A DNA stretch of 32,000 nucleotides from Nostoc sp. PCC 7120 = FACHB-418 (GTDB lineage: Bacteria; Cyanobacteriota; Cyanobacteriia; Cyanobacteriales; Nostocaceae), in the NCBI RefSeq assembly GCF_000009705.1, contig NC_003272.1, positions 3,540,001 through 3,572,000 on the forward strand, in the 5' to 3' direction. A program made the position numbers and the translations under genes. Positions 525-28,275 of the stretch are shown one piece after another. The notes beneath the pieces were generated by a model. It saw only the letters and a list, made by a program, of their open reading frames with translations. It was not told where the DNA came from and made no database searches. Each line of letters starts with the position of its first letter. The stretch's first letter is position 1.

Positions 525-1427
525 CTATTTCGATCCCGTTTCAAAACTGATTTGCTCAGACTCATAGTTTGGTGGTTCGACGTGAATGATAATCCTGACT
601 GGACTGAAGCGTTCTTCTAGTCGTCTTTCGACTTCTTCGGTGATGCGATGAGCCGTTTCCACATCTGGCGCATCAACTATTAAGTGCATTTCCATGAAGA
701 TTTGACGACCAAGGACACCCCGTGAGGCGATATCGTGACAATTAATTACCCCAGGTACAGCAACGGCGATCGCGTGTATGGCTTCTGGTGCGATCGCCAT
801 TTGATCCACCAACCAAGGTAAATTCTCTTTTAACACTGACCAACCACTCCAAAATACCAACAACGCCACCGGAAAAGCTAACACTATATCTAGCCATTGA
901 TACCCAAGCCAAACCCCAATCAAACCAAATATTACTGAGATTGTTACCCACACATCACTCATAGTATGAGTCGCATCGGCGATTAAGATTTGACTACCTA
1001 CCCGCTTACCTTCATTACGTTCATAGAACGCCACAAAAATATTTACGCCCAAAACAATCAGCAACAACCACAACTCAGGCGGTGAAATTCTGACAGGTGC
1101 GCCACCCTTGAGAATACGCTCAATCGCACCTTGGAGAATTTCAAAGCAGGCTATTCCTAAAAAGGCGGCGATTCCCAAAGCACCCACAGCTTCAAATTTG
1201 TGGTGTCCGTAAGGATGTTCGCGATCGGGATATGGAGAAGAAAAGCTACTGGCGAATAATCCGAGAATATTGTTAGCACTATCTGTCACACTATGCAACG
1301 CATCGGCTAACAAGCTGAGAGAACCAGTTAAATACCCTACAAATGCTTTTAACCCCATAACAAACAAGTTGAGCAGTAGGGTAATCAATAAAACTTTGCG
1401 TACCACCGCACGGTTATCGTAAGCCAT
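525..1427 (-). CDS. Cation diffusion facilitator (CDF) family divalent-metal efflux transporter, CzcD/ZitB-like
   Basis: 300 aa with six hydrophobic helices and a C-terminal cytoplasmic domain. H-x3-D pairs sit in TM2 (LHSVTDSANN) and TM5 (THTMSDVWV), the classic CDF metal site. ATG start at 1427. Confidence 0.9.
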   Translation of the reverse strand: MAYDNRAVVRKVLLITLLLNLFVMGLKAFVGYLTGSLSLLADALHSVTDSANNILGLFASSFSSPYPDREHPYGHHKFEAVGALGIAAFLGIACFEILQGAIERILKGGAPVRISPPELWLLLIVLGVNIFVAFYERNEGKRVGSQILIADATHTMSDVWVTISVIFGLIGVWLGYQWLDIVLAFPVALLVFWSGWSVLKENLPWLVDQMAIAPEAIHAIAVAVPGVINCHDIASRGVLGRQIFMEMHLIVDAPDVETAHRITEEVERRLEERFSPVRIIIHVEPPNYESEQISFETGSK

Positions 1428-2921: not shown

Positions 2922-2937
2922 AAAGCAGAATTTATGT

Positions 2938-3015
2938 ACCCAGGTCGTCTGTTGAGACTGGGTGTAAGGGGGTAAGGGTATAGGGGCGTAAATACTTAAA
3001 ACCCTTACACCCCTG
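2938..3015 (+). mobile_element. 5'-truncated fragment (copy C) of the same MITE family
   Basis: ACCCAGGTCGTCTGTTGAGACTGGGTGTAAGGG...TAGGGGCGTAAATACTTAAAACCCTTACACCCC is homologous to the interior of copies A and B. It lacks the AGGACTTACGCA end and starts 17 nt after the hetP-like stop codon. Confidence 0.65.
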
Positions 3016-8199: not shown

Positions 8200-10407
8200 C
8201 TACCTTGGCGGGTCTTTGTGCATGAGGGGACGCAGACCATTTAACCCGGCTGCAATGGCTGAACCATTATGAACTACAGTTGCCGCTAGGGGATGTATTC
8301 CTACTGTGGTCGCTAGTCCTAAAGCGGCTAGGTTGGGAACTACGGCTAAACTGATATTTTGTTTAATGACTGCTTGGGTTTGACGGGCGATCGCTATTGC
8401 TTCGAGAAAACTAGTTAAGTTATCATCCATCAGGACAACATCGGCTGTTTCCCTAGCTACTTCGGAACCACTACCAAAGGAAATGGCGACATCGGCATAA
8501 GCTAAGGCGATGGAATCATTTAAACCATCGCCGGTAAAGGCGACAGTTTTACCTGAATCATGGAATTTCTGGATTATTTCGGCTTTTTGTGCGGGGAATG
8601 CTTCTGCATGGACTTGGAATAGGGGAAGATGGAGTTCCGCCGCAACAGCCATAGCCCTTTGCTGATTATCCCCTGTCAGTAGATGTATTTCCATGCCGTA
8701 TTCGGTTTGTAGTTTCTCAATTACGGCTGGGCTTTCTGGGCGCAGGGGGTCTGTGTAATAGATTACGCCTTGAAATTCCTGATTTACTGCCACATACAGT
8801 AAAGAATCATGGGCGGAGATGCGACAATTGAGGTGCTTGGGACAATCTGCATGGTTGCAACTATGTGGTTCATAAAGACAATCGAGGGGAATGCCACACT
8901 GACGCAAAAAGCGATCGCTCCCTACTATAACTTGTTCACCGTCAATTTCGGCTCGTACACCTAAGCCAATTTCATACTCAAATTCTTGCCTGGGCAGAAT
9001 TTCTATACCTTGTTTCTCGGCATAACGTACCACGGCTTCGGCTACTGGGTGGGTTAGGCGTTGTTCGGCGGCGGTGGCTAGGGCTATAAGTCTGTGGGTG
9101 GTGATTCTGTCGGCGATGATTTCCACCTCCACAACTTCGATATCACCTTTGGTTAATGTGCCTGTTTTATCGAAAACTAATGTATCTACCTGTGCCAATT
9201 TTTCTAAGGCGCGACCACTACGGATGAGAACACCGTGTCTTGTGGCGTGGTGTAAGGCGGCGAGGAAAGTTGTAGGTAGGGAAACGCGGATACCTGTGAC
9301 AAAATCAAGGGTGAGGATAGATGCAGCCCTGGCAGGGTTGCGGGTGGCTGCAAATACCAGTCCGGCAAAAATTAGAGATGGTAATATGGCTTGGTCGGCA
9401 ATGTCCGCCGCGTAGTTACCCATGCGTGTATCGTGAACGGGTGCTTGTTGGACTAACTCGATACTTGCACCAGCACGGGTAGCTGTTCCTACTCGTTCGG
9501 CTTGGATGTAAATTTCTCCTTCCCTGAGTAAGGTGGACGCATAAACCGCTTCTCCCACCTGACGCAAAACTGGCATGGATTCACCAGTGAGTTTTTGTTG
9601 GTCAATTAAAGCTTTACCCCTTAATATTTGCCCATCTACGGGGATTTGTTCGCCGGGATAGACTATGACTGTATCTTGTGGTTGTACTTGTGTAGCGAGG
9701 AGGCGTTTTTTCTGCCCATCTGGTTGTGCAACCCAAGCGTAATGCCCCAAAGAAGCCAGTAAATCGGCAGCGTGATTTTCCGTAACTCTGGCGGTGCGAT
9801 CGCGTATTATATCGCCAATTTCATGCAGTGTCATCACCAAAGCTGGTGTTAACAGGTTTCCTTGGGCAGAAGTTAAGGCGATCGCGATAAAATCTAGACA
9901 ATCTATATTTAATTTTCGTTTTTGGGTAATGCTAGTATAAGCACGTTTCGCTACCGGTAAAGCTGCAAGTCCTACCGTCGCTGCAATTATTGCCCTGGGA
10001 ATGGGGAACCCCAAACCCAATACAGCTAACACGGTTGCCAAAACTGGCAATTTTACACCAGCATTATCTGATTTTGTTACTTGTTGACGGTTGACTGTTG
10101 ACGGTTGCCTAAATTTAGCCTGATGAAGTAAACCTACCAGATAAGCTTCTATGAGCCTATTGCTAGCAGATTGCTCATATCTAATAGCAACAGAAGCTGC
10201 CCAGGGATTAACCCGTACTTCCAATATGTGACTGTCAGATTCTAGTAATTCTTGCAGGCGTTGAGCATAATAGAGGTCATGGGCTACCAGGGGAACGCGA
10301 AATCTGATTCTGCCTGGAATTGTATGCACTACACTGTAGGCAACTCCAGCGATGATACTTGATTTCTGAGCCACTTGCTTACTAGTTTCCGGCTTGGTGG
10401 CAGTCAT
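8200..10407 (-). CDS. P1B-like (heavy-metal type) P-type ATPase with non-canonical metal-site motifs
   Basis: 735 aa. Motifs TGES (LTGESMPV), DKTGTLT, LTGDN and GDGLNDS are all present, with an 8-TM P1B-like layout. The N-terminal HMA-like fold lacks CxxC (TIPGRIRFRVP). The TM position of CPC/SPC/CPH reads LDFVTG...SLPTT by manual alignment. A Cys/His-rich insert HSCNHADCPKHLNC sits in the nucleotide-binding domain. Confidence 0.85.
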   Translation of the reverse strand: MTATKPETSKQVAQKSSIIAGVAYSVVHTIPGRIRFRVPLVAHDLYYAQRLQELLESDSHILEVRVNPWAASVAIRYEQSASNRLIEAYLVGLLHQAKFRQPSTVNRQQVTKSDNAGVKLPVLATVLAVLGLGFPIPRAIIAATVGLAALPVAKRAYTSITQKRKLNIDCLDFIAIALTSAQGNLLTPALVMTLHEIGDIIRDRTARVTENHAADLLASLGHYAWVAQPDGQKKRLLATQVQPQDTVIVYPGEQIPVDGQILRGKALIDQQKLTGESMPVLRQVGEAVYASTLLREGEIYIQAERVGTATRAGASIELVQQAPVHDTRMGNYAADIADQAILPSLIFAGLVFAATRNPARAASILTLDFVTGIRVSLPTTFLAALHHATRHGVLIRSGRALEKLAQVDTLVFDKTGTLTKGDIEVVEVEIIADRITTHRLIALATAAEQRLTHPVAEAVVRYAEKQGIEILPRQEFEYEIGLGVRAEIDGEQVIVGSDRFLRQCGIPLDCLYEPHSCNHADCPKHLNCRISAHDSLLYVAVNQEFQGVIYYTDPLRPESPAVIEKLQTEYGMEIHLLTGDNQQRAMAVAAELHLPLFQVHAEAFPAQKAEIIQKFHDSGKTVAFTGDGLNDSIALAYADVAISFGSGSEVARETADVVLMDDNLTSFLEAIAIARQTQAVIKQNISLAVVPNLAALGLATTVGIHPLAATVVHNGSAIAAGLNGLRPLMHKDPPR
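10083..10110. repeat. Heptamer tandem repeat (GTTGACG/GTTGACT) inside the ATPase coding sequence
   Basis: gttgacg gttgact gttgacg gttgcct encodes the linker ...RQPSTVNRQQV... A related TTGACGGTTGACAG occurs in the intergenic region at about 25571-25584. Confidence 0.7.
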
Positions 10408-10613
10408 GATTTCCCCCTCATGGTGGTGTAGCGACTTAATGAGTGGGATTCTATCGTTGCAATGAATTCAATATCCCACAAAACAGTTATGCCATAACAA
10501 GACTAATCAAGTGCTTGTGAGGACTTTAACTGTGAATATAAGTATATTGAATACCCTTGCTCAATTATTTCTAGCCAATGAAATTATTTTTAAAGATTAA
10601 GTTTAAATAAATT

Positions 10614-10747
10614 AGGACTTACGCACCCAGGTTGTCTGTTAAGACCGGGTGTAAGGGTTTAAGAGTAAGGGATGTAAGAGTGTCAAACATTTATACCCCC
10701 ATACCCTTGTTCAAACCCTTGATCTTTCGGTTTCATGCGTAAGTCTT
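10614..10747 (+). mobile_element. MITE-like element, full copy B
   Basis: TIR AGGACTTACGCA (10614-10625) / TGCGTAAGTCTT (10736-10747). Homologous to copy A. Ends 9 nt from the iota-CA stop codon. Confidence 0.8.
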
Positions 10748-10756
10748 ATGAATATC

Positions 10757-11374
10757 TTATTGTTCATAAGGTAGTGAGGAGTGATGCGTAATAATACGCA
10801 GCTTACCATGATCATCCTTCAAGAACTGCCAAGTCTTGTCTACCGTGGTGGCCTTACCTTGTTTGTCGGTGATGATTACGTTACCCATCGTAGTAGCTGT
10901 GTTACCAGTGATGAAAATCGCTGCATTCTTAATCTCTACTTTGCGCCAGCTACTCAAAGCAAAACCCTTGTCCTCAGGAAAAGCTTTATCGTCCCCCACA
11001 AAGTATGCCAAAGCCCCTGCACGGGTGGTGCGGAAGGTACGGGGAGATATGGCGAGTGTAGGCTTGAAAAGAACGGGGCCGAATTGATAACCGTAGGCAT
11101 CGTCAATCACCTTTTCAGCTAAAGCTTTAGCTGATGCTTTACCTTTCGCATCATAGGTTGTGGAAATAGCCACCAAAGCTTCCCCCCAAGCCTTTTGAGC
11201 AGCCAACACTTCGCTTTCAGTAATCGCCCTATTGACGATTGGCGTTTTCAGACTGGAAGTAGCCGTGATTTTGTCACCGGAGTCGGCAACGGATGTCTGG
11301 GCGACAATTGCAATACCTGATATAAGTGCGGTGGCTGCAAATAATACTAGAATCCTCGGTTTGAAGAGATTCAT
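10757..11374 (-). CDS. Iota-class carbonic anhydrase (COG4337; NTF2/CaMKII-AD-like fold), exported
   Basis: 205 aa. Sec-type signal peptide MNLFKPRILVLFAATALISGIAIVAQTSVA|DS. SnoaL/CaMKII-AD-like start of the mature domain (ITESEVLAAQKAWGEAL). C-terminal T-H-H-S-S at residues 196-200 is the HHSS signature of iota-CAs. The length and the His197/Ser199 positions match my memory of Anabaena All2909. Confidence 0.75.
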   Translation of the reverse strand: MNLFKPRILVLFAATALISGIAIVAQTSVADSGDKITATSSLKTPIVNRAITESEVLAAQKAWGEALVAISTTYDAKGKASAKALAEKVIDDAYGYQFGPVLFKPTLAISPRTFRTTRAGALAYFVGDDKAFPEDKGFALSSWRKVEIKNAAIFITGNTATTMGNVIITDKQGKATTVDKTWQFLKDDHGKLRIITHHSSLPYEQ

Positions 11375-11474
11375 TCAGTAAATGCTTTAGTTTGTATCTA
11401 TTTATATTCTCACAAGTTGAGGTTTTAAGTAGCCATCATAAAATGCCTACACAAGAAAACATGAAAAGGCCTTT

Positions 11475-11518
11475 CCCTTACCCCCAGTCTCAACAGACAA
11501 ACTGGGTGCGTAAGTCAT
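11475..11518 (-). mobile_element. Solo terminal fragment (copy D) of the MITE family, inverted orientation
   Basis: The reverse complement ATGACTTACGCACCCAGTTTGTCTGTTGAGACTGGGGGTAAGGG matches the first 44 nt of copy B with about 5 mismatches. It ends 1 nt from the beta-CA stop codon. Confidence 0.7.
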
Positions 11519-11519
11519 A

Positions 11520-12251
11520 TTAAGAAATTACTGAGACTGTTCCGGTATCAATATCGTAAGCAGCACCAATGATTTGGACAGTACCTTTATTAACTAACTG
11601 TGCCAAAATGGTTGATTTTTGTTGCAGCTTTTCAGCTTGGTACTGGATGTTAGCAATAACAGCTGCTTTATTAACATCCTTGGACTTTGACGGTAATTTT
11701 GACAAGGCTGGTCTAATACTCTCCGCCAAATAGCCGATTCTGCCAGGAAGGGGTTCATCTTTCACACTGGCTGCCACAGCACCGCATTTTGTATGCCCTA
11801 AAACGACAATCAACCGTGTATCGAGTACAGATGTAGCATATTCCAAACTAGCGATCGCCATATCACTGGCAATATTACCAGCTACTCGCACCACGAATAA
11901 ATCCCCCAGCCCTTGGTCAAAAACAATTTCCGCCGGGACTCTCGAATCTGCACAACCCAAAATAGCCGCAAAAGGATACTGTGCTTTGGCAATTGATTGC
12001 AGTTTTTGCCGTGATTGGTTAGGATACTTTGGTTTTCTTTTGACAAATCTTTGATTACCATCCAGTAAAAGCTTTAAAGCTTTTTGTGGATTTACTGGAT
12101 TAAGGTTAATTGATTTGACATCAGCAATAGCAGGTTCTTCTTTACCTACAGTCAAACTACCAGCACAAGCATTAGCAGCAACAACCAAGCTTCCCGCGCC
12201 GGCTAACCCTAAGAAATTACGACGGCCAATAAATCCATTGATTCGACTCAT
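11520..12251 (-). CDS. Beta-class carbonic anhydrase with a twin-arginine (Tat) signal peptide
   Basis: 243 aa from ATG 12251 (the track start at 12266 is TTG). Tat motif GRRNFLGLAGAG. Beta-CA zinc-ligand motifs CADSRVP and LGHTKCGAV. Confidence 0.9.
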   Translation of the reverse strand: MSRINGFIGRRNFLGLAGAGSLVVAANACAGSLTVGKEEPAIADVKSINLNPVNPQKALKLLLDGNQRFVKRKPKYPNQSRQKLQSIAKAQYPFAAILGCADSRVPAEIVFDQGLGDLFVVRVAGNIASDMAIASLEYATSVLDTRLIVVLGHTKCGAVAASVKDEPLPGRIGYLAESIRPALSKLPSKSKDVNKAAVIANIQYQAEKLQQKSTILAQLVNKGTVQIIGAAYDIDTGTVSVIS

Positions 12252-12495
12252 TTCTTTACCTAACAACAGTTTGACTGTTATCAGAAAGATACCAAACTTA
12301 ACAAAGTTTCAAGAGTACTTTTGCACACGCTTTAAGAGTTATTTAATTATTAGTTAGTAGTCAAACCCTAAAACACTGGCTTTAGGGTATAGGGGTGTAG
12401 GGGTGGATGCAACCATTATTCCGTTGCTGGTTTTATAGTCATTACTCATTAACCTTATGAAAAACCTACACTTGCCAGATTGTATACTCCCTAGT

Positions 12496-13653
12496 TCAAC
12501 TGTCCTTGACACCAAACCACTTATCATACAGTGATTGATAAGTGCCATTTTCTTTGAGTTTCAGTAAGGCATTATTAATAGGTTTACGGTAGGGGCTATT
12601 ATTAGGCAAAACAATACCGTAGTTTTCTTCGCGGAAGACACTGCCCACAACCTCTACTTTTCCCTGACCTTGATTAGCAGCATAGAACAGAAGTACAGGA
12701 GAGTCAAAAACAACAGCTTCAGCTTTTTTTGTTTCTAAAGCATCGTAAGCTTGCTCAATTTTGGGAACCTCTAAGACAGAAATTTTCTGTTGTTTTAAGT
12801 ATGTTGCAGCTGTGCTACCAGTTGTTGTTGCCACCACCCTGCCTGGTAGATCACTTACACTGTTGATATCTGCTTGTAACTGTTGCACAGTTAGCGAAGT
12901 GGTAGCAGCTGCTGTAAAGTAAGTGACAAATAGTACACCGATAAACATCCAAATAATAGCTAATATCCGACCGATGACTCCTTTGGGCATTTCATCAGCT
13001 TGAGTTGCTAAGGTAGCAGCAGCCCACCAACAGGCTTTGAAAATCCCAGGAAAGTAAGATTGGGAAATCATGCCTTCTTTTTGATGACGCTCAGATAACC
13101 AAATGACGTGTGCGGCTATGACAATGAGCAACAAAGCCAAGCCAAGCACTTGTAAGATCGTTGTCGATAAGAATAGTGACAAAATATTAGGTGTGCCACT
13201 ATTACTGAGTTTTGGATTGCGTACTAAAATCTGTAATCCCCCACTAAACATGGGTAAGGAAAAGTCAAATTGTTGCTGACGTTCAGCTGTAATTGAGATG
13301 GCTGCAATCCCTGCATTGGCTTTACCATTCTGCACAGATGAGAGCAAATCAGGAACGCTTGGATATTCCACGAATTTAGACTCTGCACCTATCTGGCTGG
13401 CAATACTGCGCCAAAGATCAATACTGAATCCTGATAGTTCACCATTGTCAGTAAAGACAAAGGGGGGAATAGCTCTAGTAGCTACGACAAAGGATTTTTG
13501 AGTTTCAGGTTCTTGGGACTGCACTGGATGAACAACTAGGAACAACACCAAAATTCCGCATACCATTCCTAGCCAGATAGGGAGTTTCAGGAAACGCCTT
13601 ATGTTCCTTGCCGCAACAAATTGAGAAAATCTTTGGGCGATCGCATTTATCAT
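12496..13653 (-). CDS. Prokaryotic ionotropic glutamate receptor homolog (GluR0-type: split periplasmic amino-acid-binding domain plus pore module)
   Basis: 385 aa. Order is signal/anchor helix, SBP_bac_3-like lobe S1 (..ISITAERQQQFDFS..), M1 helix, re-entrant loop (CWWAAATLATQADEMP), M3-like helix (GRILAIIWMFIGVLFVTYFTAAATTSLT) and lobe S2 (..AVVFDSPVLLFY..). There is no GYG anywhere in the protein. Confidence 0.8.
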   Translation of the reverse strand: MINAIAQRFSQFVAARNIRRFLKLPIWLGMVCGILVLFLVVHPVQSQEPETQKSFVVATRAIPPFVFTDNGELSGFSIDLWRSIASQIGAESKFVEYPSVPDLLSSVQNGKANAGIAAISITAERQQQFDFSLPMFSGGLQILVRNPKLSNSGTPNILSLFLSTTILQVLGLALLLIVIAAHVIWLSERHQKEGMISQSYFPGIFKACWWAAATLATQADEMPKGVIGRILAIIWMFIGVLFVTYFTAAATTSLTVQQLQADINSVSDLPGRVVATTTGSTAATYLKQQKISVLEVPKIEQAYDALETKKAEAVVFDSPVLLFYAANQGQGKVEVVGSVFREENYGIVLPNNSPYRKPINNALLKLKENGTYQSLYDKWFGVKDS

Positions 13654-20510: not shown

Positions 20511-20616
20511 CTTGGTTCGGGATTTTGATTGGGACTTTCAGATTGCTCTAAAAAATTTCTTTCTTTATCTTTGCATTTTTTAGAGTTTCAGCGTACAATA
20601 GTAAATCGTGACATCT

Positions 20617-20703
20617 GGAGAGATGGCCGAGTGGTTTAAGGCGCAGACCTGGAAAGTCTGTAATGCGGAAACGTATTCTAGGGTTCAAATCCCTATCTCT
20701 CCG
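20617..20703 (+). tRNA. tRNA-Ser, anticodon GGA
   Basis: Manual cloverleaf: acceptor GGAGAGA/TCTCTCC plus discriminator G; anticodon stem CAGAC/GTCTG with loop CTGGAAA; long class-II variable arm; T arm TAGGG-TTCAAAT-CCCTA. CCA is not encoded. Confidence 0.9.
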
Positions 20704-20730
20704 TTATTCAGCCTAGTTTAAATATATAGT

Positions 20731-26295: not shown

Positions 26296-27090
26296 TTAAA
26301 TGGCTTCGATAACTAGGCGATCGTTGAGAGGTTGCACTGGACGTGCGTTTTGGGGAAACATTTGACTAAACTTAGCTATCTGTGCAGGAGAGGCTTCGAT
26401 AGGTGTCGCCATTACGCACCAGAGAACATTTTCTGAACAGGGTGGGGTTGTCAGAGAGCCAGAATAAGTAAAAAATCTGTGTTGTGCTGGGAGAAATTGG
26501 GAAGCGTCTATATTTATATCCTCTATTCTTTTGTCTGTTCCTTGGTTTTGAGGTGTGGCATCCCAGATAATTTGCAGCGTCGGGTTAAATGCTCCTGCTT
26601 GCAAGAAAATACCCATAACGGCTAAGTCGCCAGATTTACTCCGGTGAACTAAATGGAGTTCCATATCATATAATTTCCCATCAACCCGATGTTCGCTGAA
26701 GTGATGAAAGTGAAACTGAAGCAGCTCAAATTTTTGGTGAGCATACTTGAGATAACTGCCTGGTTGATAGTTGACTTGGACTGTTTTACCGTTGTTGATT
26801 AGGTGTAATGCCGTTGGCTGATAATTGGTAACTAACAAATCTTGACTGCTGCTGTGGACATCTTTCACATCTGCAATCTGCAAATCAATCGGCGTTTGTT
26901 TTCTGCCTATTTGGCAAAGGGCAAAGTCAGGGGAAAGCTCACCCCAATGCTCTGGGCCTACTTTGCCGATATATCCCCAGTTTACCGTTTTTGCCCTAGC
27001 TGGAGATGTGACACAACTAGAAAATGAGGTTCCCAAGACACTCATACCCAATAATTTCAGTAGTTGCCTTCGATATAAAGTACTACTCAT
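26296..27090 (-). CDS. ecaA: Alpha-class carbonic anhydrase, exported
   Basis: 264 aa. RR-containing signal (YRRQLLKLLGMSVLG...ARA|K). Alpha-CA hallmarks NWGY, QFHFHHFSEH (two Zn His), ELHLVH (third His) and GSLTTPPCSE. Confidence 0.9.
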   Translation of the reverse strand: MSSTLYRRQLLKLLGMSVLGTSFSSCVTSPARAKTVNWGYIGKVGPEHWGELSPDFALCQIGRKQTPIDLQIADVKDVHSSSQDLLVTNYQPTALHLINNGKTVQVNYQPGSYLKYAHQKFELLQFHFHHFSEHRVDGKLYDMELHLVHRSKSGDLAVMGIFLQAGAFNPTLQIIWDATPQNQGTDKRIEDINIDASQFLPAQHRFFTYSGSLTTPPCSENVLWCVMATPIEASPAQIAKFSQMFPQNARPVQPLNDRLVIEAI

Positions 27091-27118
27091 TTCCCTGCGG
27101 TTGAAACATACTGCGATA

Positions 27119-27487
27119 TTAAACTAAACGTTGCAAACGGCTGAGACGTTCTGAGTAATTTCTCAAGACATTGAGAGCAAACATTGGTGTTTCTTGGACA
27201 GCGAATAAGAACCTTTTCTCATCTAAGTAAGCTAGTTGACAATCAGTTTTAGCGATCGCTGTATAGTTCCGATGATTCACTCCTACTAATATACCTGTAC
27301 CGAAGATTTCTCCAGCCTCTATTGTTTCTACAACCTTACCGTTGATCAATAAATCAACAGTTCCTTCTACAATACCGTACATATAATCACCCGCTTGTCC
27401 TTCTTCAAAGATGACTTGACCTGCTGAAAATACCTGAGGATTGGGTTGCTTTTGAAAGATGGCGATCGTCACTACAGGACTTAACAT
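27119..27487 (-). CDS. Stand-alone cyclic-nucleotide-binding (CAP effector-type) domain protein
   Basis: About 122 aa from ATG 27487 (GTG at 27493 is possible). Beta-barrel pattern FSAGQVIFEEGQAGDYMYGIVEGTVDL...GEIFGTGILVGVNHRNYTAIAKT. No DNA-binding or other output domain. The stop lies 28 nt before the ecaA ATG. Confidence 0.75.
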   Translation of the reverse strand: MLSPVVTIAIFQKQPNPQVFSAGQVIFEEGQAGDYMYGIVEGTVDLLINGKVVETIEAGEIFGTGILVGVNHRNYTAIAKTDCQLAYLDEKRFLFAVQETPMFALNVLRNYSERLSRLQRLV

Positions 27488-27718
27488 AAGCACAAACCTA
27501 GATTTTTTATTTTTAGCTCCAGCCTTTGGACAGGCAATATCAGAGCAGGAAAAATTATACTACTTTCTGTTGAGGCATCAGCCCCGAAATATGTTTATTA
27601 GTATCTAAATTCAACATTTATGCTGTATAAAAATTGACAAGTACTGAAAAAGGTTTGTGGCAATTTGGCAGTTGAAAGACTTTAAACGCTGTTATTTTTT
27701 ATATATGCAAGGAGTGTA

Positions 27719-27758
27719 GCAGAAGTTAGCCCAATCTAACAGTTAGGCTGACTTCTGC
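27719..27758 (-). terminator. Hairpin downstream of the VOC gene (possible terminator)
   Basis: GCAGAAGTTAGCC (27719-27731) / GGCTGACTTCTGC (27746-27758), a 13-bp stem with one mismatch. There is no clean T-run. Confidence 0.35.
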
Positions 27759-27798
27759 GCCTTTACTAACATTAATCAACTAGAAATTTTAATATTTT

Positions 27799-28275
27799 TT
27801 ATTTGCTAGTTCCTGATTGTGGGTCGCAGCGAATTTCAATCATGAAGCCGTCGGGGTCGTAGAAGTAAACACCTCTACCAGTTGGACGAGTGACGGGGCC
27901 ATGAGCGATCGCAATTTTATTTTCTCGCACAACTGCCACTGCTTGCTCAAATAACCCAGGATCAATATCAAATGCTAAATGGTAGGCTCTAGTAAAACTT
28001 TGTTCTGGGTCTGGGTTTGCTGGTGTTAAATCAGGTGTCCAAAATAAGTCTAGAATTGTACCGTCGGGGGTGGCGAAGTTAGCAACTTTTCCAGTGGCGA
28101 CAAGTTCCACCAAAGTAGCTGGTACTTCATCGCCTGTGAGTTCATATAATCCCAGGATAGTACCGTAAAAATGGCGGGAAGCCTGCATATCTTTAACATT
28201 AAGAGCAATATGATGCACTCTACGCAGATTACCCGGTGAAAGCACGCTGTTTAGGGATTGAGCAGTAGTTACCAT
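27799..28275 (-). CDS. VOC family protein (glyoxalase/extradiol-dioxygenase-like)
   Basis: 158 aa. HHIALNVKDMQASRHFYGTILGL ... YFYDPDGFMIEI. Confidence 0.8.
   Translation of the reverse strand: MVTTAQSLNSVLSPGNLRRVHHIALNVKDMQASRHFYGTILGLYELTGDEVPATLVELVATGKVANFATPDGTILDLFWTPDLTPANPDPEQSFTRAYHLAFDIDPGLFEQAVAVVRENKIAIAHGPVTRPTGRGVYFYDPDGFMIEIRCDPQSGTSK

Follow-up and report, generated by a model that had tools for sequence, protein, structure and literature searches.

The gene for the metal-independent iota-class carbonic anhydrase (CA) of Nostoc/Anabaena sp. PCC 7120 sits exactly in the chromosomal slot that in sister strains belongs to a second zinc-type CA of the beta class, here called b2. 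Our best reading, and the only new point of this analysis, is that it has replaced that gene. We consider it probable that the iota-CA displaced b2 in situ; having entered the b2 slot by gene displacement, it would therefore adjoin the remaining beta-CA (b1) as a historical by-product and not as part of a conserved two-enzyme module. The window, meaning the whole stretch of 32,000 nucleotides that was analyzed, corresponds to about 3.540-3.572 Mb on the chromosome of PCC 7120.

The three carbonic anhydrases of the window

A sequence-only reading of this DNA had claimed three CA classes in one region, two of them in tandem. The corresponding open reading frames are present, all on the minus strand and all matched by family models: the iota-CA all2909 (10757-11374, 205 aa), the beta-CA all2910 or b1 (11520-12251 from its ATG, with an in-frame TTG at 12266 as an alternative start), and the alpha-CA EcaA, all2929 (26296-27090). 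The tandem is borne out as well, b1 lying upstream of the iota-CA gene with 145 bp between the stop codon of the former and the start of the latter. All three genes were already known in PCC 7120, which that reading missed: BAB74608 is all2909, and the chromosome coordinates of the three genes are given in the supplement of Flaherty 2011. Because the genes are annotated in PCC 7120, the occurrence of all three classes in 16 kb called for no chance test. EcaA, 15 kb away, is a mere syntenic neighbor of the beta-iota pair.

The all2909 protein matches the NCBIfam equivalog for metal-independent carbonic anhydrase (NF047901) over residues 1-205 of 205, with a score of 407.4 bits (cutoff 350). It belongs to COG4337 and Pfam PF27546 (MICAH), the latter being found on its homologues, and its residues 31-205 are 100% identical to PDB 7C5V/7C5W, the crystallized constructs beginning past the predicted signal peptide. 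Residues T106, Y124, H197 and S199 (all2909 numbering), mutation of which abolishes activity (PMC8132391), are present and invariant in the homologue alignment. The enzyme hydrates CO2 and is metal-free as judged from EDTA/PDA treatment, ICP-OES and the crystal structure; its dehydration activity is very low, so that it works essentially in hydration only, and its specific activity is 16.7 WAU/mg, compared with roughly 600 for the bovine enzyme (PMC8132391). The Sec-type signal peptide (residues 1-30) reads MNLFKPRILVLFAATALISGIAIVAQTSVA, followed by D, with K5 and R7, a hydrophobic core of mean Kyte-Doolittle value 2.76, an S-V-A/D cleavage site and no RR. The prediction that the iota-CA is Sec-exported through a conserved signal is supported by these features together with homologue conservation, a Sec-like N-terminus being found in 112 of 120 homologues and an RR motif in none. 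Similar signal peptides are found on the majority of COG4337 proteins from bacteria, even where the host is non-photosynthetic and has no thylakoids.

The b1 protein (exact match BAB74609.1) matches Pfam Pro_CA (PF00484; 5e-40, 137.7 bits, cutoff 25.7), and its translation contains the motifs GCADSR and GHTKCG, with Cys-His-Cys zinc ligands and the Asp-Arg dyad; the nearest solved structures are 2A5V and 1YM3, over residues 53-238. Its signal reads MSRINGFIGRRNFLGLAG... and holds the twin-arginine motif G-R-R-N-F-L-G ahead of a hydrophobic region that ends in a Cys. With an RR-x-hydrophobic-hydrophobic motif in 120/120 beta-CA homologues, predicted Tat export through a conserved signal is supported. 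In all2910 the residues up to the signal Cys are A-N-A-C, the Asn at -2 departing from the lipobox [LVI][ASTVI][GAS]-C, whereas close b1 orthologues have V-T-A-C or V-T-S-C, which fit it. A lipobox-like Cys is found in only 10 of 120 beta-CA homologues, and most Nostocales homologues are without the Cys. The b1 protein is possibly lipid-anchored.

EcaA, whose exact sequence is BAB74628.1/CAH_NOSS1, matches Pfam PF00194 (6e-46, 157.5 bits); the motifs HFH...ELHLVH in its translation form a three-histidine zinc site, and comparison with bacterial alpha-CA structures places the start of the catalytic domain at residue 37. The signal reads ...LYRRQLLKLLG...ARA/K, and 106/120 alpha-CA homologues have an RR motif as well. 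Its twin-arginine motif, Y-R-R-Q-L-L-K, has Leu at the consensus Phe position, and a similar loss of Phe is blamed in reviews for the failure of Synechococcus (S. elongatus) EcaA to be exported in E. coli. A general rule that zinc enzymes always use Tat was dropped, since reviews describe the Cyanothece EcaA as Sec-exported. According to reviews, the Anabaena PCC 7120 protein was detected in the outer layers of the cell and was never studied further in Anabaena. Two premises of the sequence-only reading, export signals on all three enzymes and differing metal needs, are thus upheld by the predicted signals just described, and by zinc-ligand motifs in alpha- and beta-CA beside an iota-CA that is metal-free by experiment (PMC8132391).

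The slot downstream of b1

Conservation of the beta-iota tandem across cyanobacteria had been named as a check, with its lack counting against the sequence-only reading, and here the result is negative. A beta-CA was found beside the iota-CA gene in none of 28 cyanobacterial loci, of which 23 extend 1.5 kb or more upstream, and in the flanks of 2/80 iota-CA loci from other genomes overall, both from Methylotenera; three further iota-CA contexts were also unlike the PCC 7120 arrangement. By its adjacency, the beta-iota pair is not a conserved pair or operon. Clustering of the ORFs within 4 kb of the 80 loci gave no neighbor common to cyanobacterial iota-CA genes, the cluster representatives being unreliable owing to spurious ORFs in high-GC loci. 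In two Pseudanabaena MAGs the iota-CA follows an operon of an NrtA/CmpA-like binding protein, a porin and NrtB/C/D-like proteins, in which NCBIfam does not discriminate cmp from nrt, and a two-component system often lies alongside proteobacterial iota-CA genes.

The informative comparison, missed in the sequence-only reading, is with sister strains. There, the slot that holds the iota-CA in PCC 7120-type contigs is occupied by b2, a second beta-CA with a Tat signal, as seen in A. variabilis (L092/L093), Anabaena sp. CCY 9910 (L085), A. subtropica (L087) and A. azotica (L090), and adjacent accession numbers suggest the same b1-b2 tandem in N. parmelioides. All these loci run from HisRS-like through Fer4, hypothetical, ABC ATPase and an optional GluR0 to b1, and b2 comes next. 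In PCC 7120 the upstream syntenic neighbor is all2911, a GluR0-like ligand-gated channel or solute-binding protein (12496-13653, minus strand; Pfam SBP_bac_3 and Lig_chan), and on the other side lies all2908, a P1B-type heavy-metal ATPase with an N-terminal HMA_2 domain (8200-10407, minus strand; Pfam and NCBIfam). Just two of these strains, A. variabilis and CCY 9910, have the ATPase directly after b2; FeoAB separates the two in A. subtropica. The b2 protein, which is ABA20615.1 in A. variabilis, has a signal with an ASA/V cleavage site and is presumably soluble. The identity between b1 and b2 is only about 60%, which points to an old duplication, and therefore, by parsimony, to b2 as the ancestral occupant of the slot. 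Clusters of b2 at 90% identity contain many Nostocaceae and no PCC 7120 accession, whereas those of b1 and EcaA include PCC 7120; it is from this cluster membership, not from a genome scan, that b2 is judged to be absent from the rest of PCC 7120.

The boundaries of the replacement can be located within a few bases. In blastn comparisons with CCY 9910 and A. variabilis, sister homology (91-94% identity) stops at 11519 and restarts at 10606, so that a PCC 7120-specific segment of 912 bp (10607-11518) stands in place of a 1.26-1.29 kb b2 segment. Repeat and BLAST analysis found a complete 137-bp MITE-like dispersed repeat at 10613-10749, which lies 7 bp beyond the stop codon of the iota-CA gene and has the terminal inverted repeats (TIRs) TAGGACTTACGCA ... 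TGCGTAAGTCTTA. At the other end, an inverted-repeat search and BLAST revealed a solo repeat end of 45 nt (11475-11519), inverted relative to 10613-10657 and 89% complementary to it, which starts 1 nt past the beta-CA stop codon and matches the left homology breakpoint. Both breakpoints fall where the inverted arms have their outer ends. Further copies of the repeat lie at 20-227 and 2932-3012. The repeat has the traits of a MITE, being small, bounded by terminal inverted repeats, devoid of an ORF and present in multiple copies, and the 137-bp copy folds end to end (z = -3.0). Copy 20-227 is flanked by a target-site duplication, TTGAT/TTGAT, which is matched at only 4/5 positions around copy 10613-10749, and no clean target-site duplication was found at the borders of the 912-bp composite; because of this, transposition, repeat-mediated recombination and insertion followed by deletion are all possible mechanisms. 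The TIR core is absent from L001 and L094, the loci with the closest iota-CA genes, and the repeat is therefore a feature of the PCC 7120 side and not of the incoming gene of these relatives. A search of a plasmid collection gave one partial match only, and no support for the presence of the repeat on PCC 7120 plasmids.

Other observations point to a foreign origin of the iota-CA gene. Its GC3 is 46%, against 31-41% in nine neighboring genes. Its closest relative, from Sphaerospermopsis, is 87% identical and lies in an unrelated context, and the next, at 80%, lies in yet another. Among plasmids, 28 carry a member of the family, and 11 of these are conjugative. Furthermore, a promoter-like motif, TTGTGAGAATATAAAT, is located at 11400-11415 on the minus strand, 26-41 nt upstream of the iota-CA ATG and within the imported segment, and it is kept between the window and the Sphaerospermopsis locus while the surrounding upstream DNA diverges. 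We infer that this motif may act as the iota-CA promoter and travel with the gene.

Together, this evidence suggests the following course of events. The ancestral locus of the clade would have carried two Tat-signal beta-CAs in tandem, b1 and b2, between the GluR0-like gene and the HMA_2 P-type ATPase. The lineage leading to PCC 7120 would have exchanged the 1.3-kb b2 interval for a 0.9-kb segment bounded by inverted MITE-like repeat ends, and this segment would have brought a horizontally acquired iota-CA transcription unit. While b1 and EcaA would fold and be loaded with zinc in the cytoplasm and then pass through Tat, the metal-free iota-CA would cross unfolded via Sec, be cleaved after SVA (residue 30) and fold outside the cytoplasm with no cofactor. 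Once exported, it could turn CO2 to bicarbonate, holding inorganic carbon in the form that bicarbonate transporters use, and may so take over the work of the lost soluble b2.

Regulation, compartment and alternative explanations

Zur-box-like sites were sought with the pattern TGATAATNATTATCA, reportedly the Zur consensus of Napolitano et al. 2012, allowing up to 3 mismatches; none was found in 10400-12500 or 27090-27800, and the five matches in the whole window are no more than expected by chance. The window scan likewise gave no NtcA site near any CA gene, and a promoter and terminator scan of the window gave chance-level counts, with no minus-strand match in the 145-bp gap. In published RNA-seq data, all2909 and all2910 are expressed at very low levels (2-38 reads in one set of conditions); they differ 6 h after nitrogen step-down, with 23 and 2 reads, respectively, and late after step-down both rise about 2-4 fold. 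An A. variabilis microarray paper names only CcaA and CcmM, and a spatial proteomics paper is without CA data. The region was also said to hold a CDF transporter and a P-type metal pump, and Pfam and NCBIfam matches found both. The CDF protein (525-1427, minus strand; Cation_efflux and ZT_dimer; Cdf31 equivalog, NF052602, 560 bits) is a zinc efflux transporter located 9.3 kb from the iota-CA and outside the CA locus, and the P-type ATPase all2908 is an older neighbor, present before the iota-CA arrived; the zinc-sparing link drawn from these pumps is not supported. Scans with Rfam and for tRNAs gave a tRNA-Ser (20616-20704) as the sole match in the 32-kb window.

The first model for the locus was that of a co-evolved and co-regulated set of extracytoplasmic CAs whose use varies with zinc, CO2 or cell type, as in a zinc-sparing switch controlled by Zur. 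Such a set would agree with the export signals on all three proteins, with their unlike metal requirements, with a 145-bp gap that holds no predicted intrinsic terminator, and with the late rise of both transcripts after step-down. We nevertheless regard it as very improbable: 78/80 iota-CA loci, including 28/28 cyanobacterial ones, are without the adjacency, the iota-CA is a recent arrival in a strain-specific segment and has a conserved promoter-like motif of its own, no Zur-box-like or NtcA site lies by the three genes, the reads at 6 h diverge, and the zinc paralogue b2 was lost, not retained beside a regulated alternative. The evidence on transcription gives no support to the proposed co-regulation of the CA genes. 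The displacement might instead have been a neutral accident, in which a repeat-mediated rearrangement deleted b2 and fixed a horizontally acquired iota-CA that contributes little, with neither substitution nor metal economy. The MITE-like repeats at both junctions, the very low expression of all2909 and all2910 and the low published activity of the all2909 enzyme all fit an accident of this kind, as do reviews in which the role of external CA in cyanobacteria is undefined and added external CA was without effect in S. elongatus. However, the ORF is intact, its catalytic residues are invariant, and the signal peptide and promoter-like motif have been kept; furthermore, that the incomer should also be an exported CA is an unlikely coincidence under random insertion. 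The exact protein is found on 175 assembly blocks, in the same context where this is shown, although these are largely resequenced lab strains and the count therefore says little on selection. On balance we think a neutral accident unlikely.

A further alternative concerns compartments and not the origin of the tandem. The Sec and Tat systems of cyanobacteria feed both membrane systems, the thylakoid included, and at least one of the three enzymes could be directed to the thylakoid membrane or lumen and not to the periplasm, the redundancy being then only apparent, with enzymes in separate compartments. The lipobox-like V-T-[AS]-C at the conserved Cys of b1 orthologues would be in line with this, and so would the case of Synechocystis EcaB, which according to reviews is largely thylakoid-associated in spite of its Tat signal and lipid-attachment site. 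Against it stand the outer-layer location of EcaA and, for the iota-CA, the signal peptides of COG4337 proteins from thylakoid-free bacteria and the frequency of Sec-like N-termini; no sequence feature separates the two destinations. We take a thylakoid destination to be a possibility, though a somewhat doubtful one.

Significance and comparison with known systems

The co-location as it was first described changes little, the enzymes being already catalogued in a model organism, where the crystal structure of one has been solved, and their arrangement being no conserved design. In situ displacement of b2 would mean more: a gene-for-gene exchange between unrelated CA folds, with limits known to within a few bases and an age younger than the divergence from A. 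variabilis, offering comparative evidence that a metal-free iota-CA can substitute for an exported zinc beta-CA. Two tractable sister strains could then be used to address both the long-unresolved role of external CA in cyanobacteria and the proposed low-metal advantage of iota-CAs. Only tentatively do we suggest that the swap, carried by a MITE-bounded 0.9-kb unit, was selected for a lower zinc demand, or for dispensing with cytoplasmic metal loading before export. If this were true, the benefit of a metal-free CA under zinc scarcity could be tested in a natural pair of strains, PCC 7120 and A. variabilis ATCC 29413, and MITE-bounded single-gene units could spread such swaps among Nostocales.

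The individual enzymes have clear counterparts. The all2909 described by Hirakawa et al. 2021 (BMC Biol 19:105; 7C5V/7C5W; PF27546; NF047901) is the same protein, with the same catalytic residues and predicted signal peptide; the text of that paper makes no mention of all2910, EcaA, EcaB, the adjacency or a sister-strain comparison. EcaA of Anabaena sp. PCC 7120 (all2929; Soltes-Rak et al. 1997, as cited in reviews) is the same gene, with no difference between the two. EcaB of Synechocystis sp. PCC 6803 (slr0051) and all2910 are both beta-class enzymes with Cys/His/Cys ligands and the Asp-Arg dyad and with a twin-arginine signal that ends in a Cys, a likeness of enzyme class and signal type only and not a claim of orthology; EcaB is a Tat-signal lipoprotein, whereas the A-N-A-C of all2910 departs from the usual lipobox.

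The repeat resembles cyanobacterial MITEs (e.g. Nezha, Anabaena; PMC10969869, PMC3184786) in its short TIRs, its size of 137-208 bp, its hairpin and the absence of an ORF. Like ordinary MITEs it is present in several copies within 32 kb; unlike them, the two ends around the iota-CA enclose a gene.

Zur-controlled zinc-sparing pairs are known, the C+/C- ribosomal proteins and the FolE/FolE2 pair among them, and the present case is similar in that a zinc-free protein would stand in for one that needs zinc. It differs in that b2 is gone from the locus, with no Zur-box-like site nearby, while the zinc CAs b1 and EcaA stay. Other parallels are found in non-orthologous gene displacement in situ, where, as here, an unrelated fold with the same activity fills an ancestral slot in one lineage, and in the patchy, either/or distribution of COG4337 and COG4875 enzymes in marine Synechococcus (PMC8132391), where close relatives likewise differ in the type of CA they carry. 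What sets the displacement in PCC 7120 apart is that a beta-CA would have given way to an iota-CA at one syntenic slot, with breakpoints defined to a few bases and repeats at both junctions.

Three carbonic anhydrases and their export signals

The three carbonic anhydrase (CA) genes are real and already known, and the sequence-only reading was right to place three CA classes here: open reading frames, family matches and motifs agree, and all three genes lie on the minus strand. The iota-CA (all2909, 10757-11374, 205 aa) is a full-length match to the NCBIfam equivalog 'metal-independent carbonic anhydrase' (407 bits, cutoff 350), and its residues 31-205 are 100% identical to PDB 7C5V/7C5W, labelled iota-carbonic anhydrase. 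The 7C5V protein is named as all2909 of Anabaena sp. PCC 7120, GenBank BAB74608 (PMC8132391). The beta-CA (all2910, hereafter b1; 11520-12251) matches Pfam Pro_CA (5e-40), carries the motifs CADSR and HTKCG and corresponds exactly to BAB74609.1; the 145 bp read between it and the iota-CA on one strand were confirmed. The alpha-CA EcaA (all2929, 26296-27090) matches PF00194 (6e-46), has the zinc-ligand motifs HFH and ELHLVH, and corresponds exactly to BAB74628.1 (UniProt CAH_NOSS1). An RNA-seq supplement (Flaherty) lists all2908, all2909, all2910 and all2911 at chromosome 3,548,199-3,553,753 in the order found here, so the window spans roughly 3.540-3.572 Mb.

All2909 hydrates CO2 without metal (16.7 WAU/mg), is unaffected by EDTA or PDA, contained no metal detectable by ICP-OES, has very low dehydration activity, and requires T106, Y124, H197 and S199 (PMC8132391); all four residues are invariant in our homologue alignment. 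The Hirakawa paper on all2909 (PMC8132391) does not discuss the neighbouring beta-CA, and we found no main-text mention of all2910 in the literature searched. Only two EcaA proteins of cyanobacteria have been detected in outer cell layers; that of PCC 7120 is one of them and was not studied further. According to the literature, what external CAs do for cyanobacterial physiology is still undefined.

The assignment of a Tat-like signal to the beta-CA, an RR signal to the alpha-CA and a Sec-like signal to the iota-CA holds for these predicted signals, which are conserved among homologues. The beta-CA N-terminus (MSRINGFIGRRNFLG) has an RR-x-hydrophobic-hydrophobic motif kept in 120/120 homologues. 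The alpha-CA signal combines YRRQLLKLLG with an ARA|K site, and its RR is kept in 106/120, the remainder being mostly gene calls truncated at the N-terminus. The iota-CA signal is of the classical Sec type (K5/R7, a strongly hydrophobic core, an SVA|D site); an RR motif is absent from all 120 homologues, and the N-terminus is Sec-like in 112 of them. The alignment with solved structures begins only at residue 53 in the beta-CA and at residue 37 in the alpha-CA, so that both N-termini stand out as extensions. In the beta-CA, the residues up to the Cys that follows the signal read A-N-A-C, which makes a poor lipobox (V-T-A-C or V-T-S-C in close orthologues). The twin-arginine motif of EcaA has Leu where the consensus has Phe, and loss of Phe at this position has been blamed for the failure of S. 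elongatus EcaA to be exported in E. coli; cyanobacterial export signals may also target the thylakoid, as in Synechocystis EcaB. Gene identities, the metal-free activity of the exact iota protein (PMC8132391) and the conservation of signal types are established.

Displacement of a beta-CA by an iota-CA at a syntenic slot

An alignment-based scan with one genome per species gave 80 iota-CA loci, whose flanks (up to 10 kb each side) were searched by tblastn with the beta-CA, alpha-CA, GluR0-like protein and ATPase of the window. A beta-CA was near the iota-CA in only two of the 80, both Methylotenera MAGs with differing arrangements, and near it in none of the 28 cyanobacterial loci, 23 of which extended 1.5 kb or more upstream; tblastn found no alpha-CA in the flanks of the 80 loci. 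The closest iota-CA relative, from Sphaerospermopsis (87% identity), has neighbours unlike those here, and a metagenomic relative at 80% identity has different ones again. The adjacency is therefore not conserved, an outcome that the sequence-only reading had itself named as grounds for refutation, and a coordinated system of a meaningful beta-iota tandem and a nearby alpha-CA is not supported. Dolichospermum sp. FACHB-1091 (locus L026, 8439-8939 and 10001-10495) has two tandem iota-CA genes, each sharing about 70% identity with all2909. For the proteobacterial iota-CA loci (L020-L078), a response-regulator/histidine-kinase pair is no more than 4 kb from the iota-CA in about 38/52 of the non-cyanobacterial set, a rough count given that spurious high-GC ORFs contaminate the cluster representatives; this suggests a conserved regulatory pairing with iota-CA in Burkholderiales.

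Sister loci were taken as the contigs encoding the closest beta-CA homologues. The gene order 5' of b1 (HisRS-like, 4Fe-4S ferredoxin, hypothetical, ABC ATPase, with or without the GluR0-like gene) is shared by Anabaena sp. CCY 9910 (b1 92% identical), A. variabilis ATCC 29413 and related strains, A. subtropica (81%) and A. azotica (73%), and directly after b1 all of them carry b2, a second beta-CA of 244 aa. This protein has its own twin-arginine signal (MSRINGFAGRRNFLKLAG) with an ASA|V site, lacks the Cys, and keeps its catalytic motifs intact; its identity to b1 is only about 60%, so the duplication is old. On PCC 7120-type contigs the slot after b1 holds the iota-CA. The b2 protein clusters span many Nostocaceae, with adjacent b1/b2 accessions in A. 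variabilis and N. parmelioides, and include no PCC 7120 accession, whereas PCC 7120 is represented in those of b1 and EcaA. In Nostoc sp. PCC 7524, b1 stands alone and unrelated genes follow it. A beta-CA has thus been displaced in situ by an iota-CA at a syntenic slot, with definable breakpoints. Parsimony makes the b1-b2 tandem the older state, from which the PCC 7120 lineage derived its iota arrangement. As far as the literature searched shows, such a displacement is undescribed, and it makes functional equivalence and zinc economy testable in two sister model strains.

Only CCY 9910 and A. variabilis have the genes for the HMA_2 P-type ATPase, JAB and ThiF immediately after b2. In A. subtropica (L087, 7228-9510), an inserted FeoAB separates b2 from the ATPase; in A. 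azotica (L090, 8039-9022), an HMA_2-PAP2 fusion protein replaces the ATPase, and downstream genes differ. To the right of the CA tandem there thus seems to be a hotspot at which metal-related genes are rearranged. In the window, all2908 (8200-10407, minus strand) encodes a P1B-type ATPase (TIGR01525, 556 bits) with an N-terminal HMA_2 domain; its transmembrane position some 45 residues ahead of DKTGT reads LDFVTGIRVSLPTT and lacks a CPx motif. The gene overlaps the JAB-domain gene at the latter's start, a ThiF/rhodanese gene comes next, and the trio is kept in A. variabilis and CCY 9910.

Boundaries and origin of the replacing segment

DNA homology to CCY 9910 and A. variabilis (91-94% identity) ends at 11519, one base past the b1 stop codon, and restarts at 10606, so that 912 bp in PCC 7120 stand in place of 1.26-1.29 kb. 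Inverted arms of 45 nt (11475-11519 and 10613-10657, 89% complementary) bound this segment. They represent the ends of a dispersed, MITE-like repeat whose terminal inverted repeats read roughly TAGGACTTACGCA and whose full copies measure 137 and 208 bp. The complete 137-bp copy (10613-10749), with its terminal inverted repeats, lies 7 bp beyond the iota-CA stop codon and folds end to end (z = -3.0); the 208-bp copy (20-227) has TTGAT on both sides, and a partial copy lies at 2932-3012. Junction alignments place no such repeat at the syntenic junctions of the sister strains.

Within the segment, the stretch homologous to the Sphaerospermopsis gene starts 49 bp before the iota-CA ATG and extends to the stop codon, taking in a conserved TTGTGAGAATATAAAT motif; the iota-CA therefore probably arrived with its own, putative promoter. 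Also in line with an outside origin, its GC3 is 46%, against 31-41% in nine other window genes, and its family occurs on 28 plasmids (Klebsiella, Plesiomonas, Agrobacterium, Asticcacaulis and others), 11 of them predicted conjugative. Many plasmid homologues are recorded as 'phosphoribosyl-AMP cyclohydrolase' or hypothetical, a persistent misannotation.

As to route, a repeat-bounded unit may have transposed, the repeats may have recombined, or an insertion may have been followed by a deletion; a search for a target-site duplication around the 912-bp composite found none convincing. The swap may likewise have been selected for zinc economy or be the neutral result of repeat-mediated rearrangement.

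Regulation and a proposed role

A regulated zinc-sparing circuit, which had been thought conceivable, is not borne out. No Zur-box-like site (up to 3 mismatches to the consensus) lies near any of the three CA genes, the CDF (525-1427), a zinc efflux transporter (Cdf31 equivalog), is 9 kb from the iota-CA, and the place of the ATPase next to b2 in CCY 9910 and A. variabilis means that it occupied the locus before the iota-CA came. Co-regulation of b1 and iota-CA fared no better: no NtcA site was found near any of the three genes, and reads at 0, 6, 12 and 21 h after nitrogen step-down (Flaherty) were 11, 23, 21 and 30 for all2909 and 8, 2, 38 and 35 for all2910, low counts that are non-parallel at 6 h and too small for a cell-type claim. 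Consensus promoter and terminator scans gave matches at chance level. Upstream of ecaA, a 124-aa ORF (27119-27493, minus strand) whose sole domain is cNMP-binding (CRP-like N-terminal) ends 28 bp before the ecaA start; on the same strand, the two may be co-transcribed, and a cyclic-nucleotide sensor beside a carbonic anhydrase is suggestive.

In the mechanism we propose, b1 and EcaA would acquire both their fold and their zinc in the cytoplasm before exit via Tat, and the iota-CA would exit unfolded via Sec and then fold without cofactor. Outside the cytoplasm it would convert CO2 to bicarbonate, feeding or retaining substrate for bicarbonate transporters and standing in for the lost soluble b2. 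Two Pseudanabaena MAGs (L011, 1069-9361, and L016) weakly support a link to bicarbonate uptake: in them the iota-CA lies directly 3' of a cmp/nrt-type ABC operon, a class within which NCBIfam models do not separate cmp from nrt. The operon encodes an NrtA/CmpA-like binding protein, a SomB-type porin and NrtB-, NrtC- and NrtD-like proteins, and in the porin it contains it resembles the cmp (bicarbonate) operon of Synechocystis.
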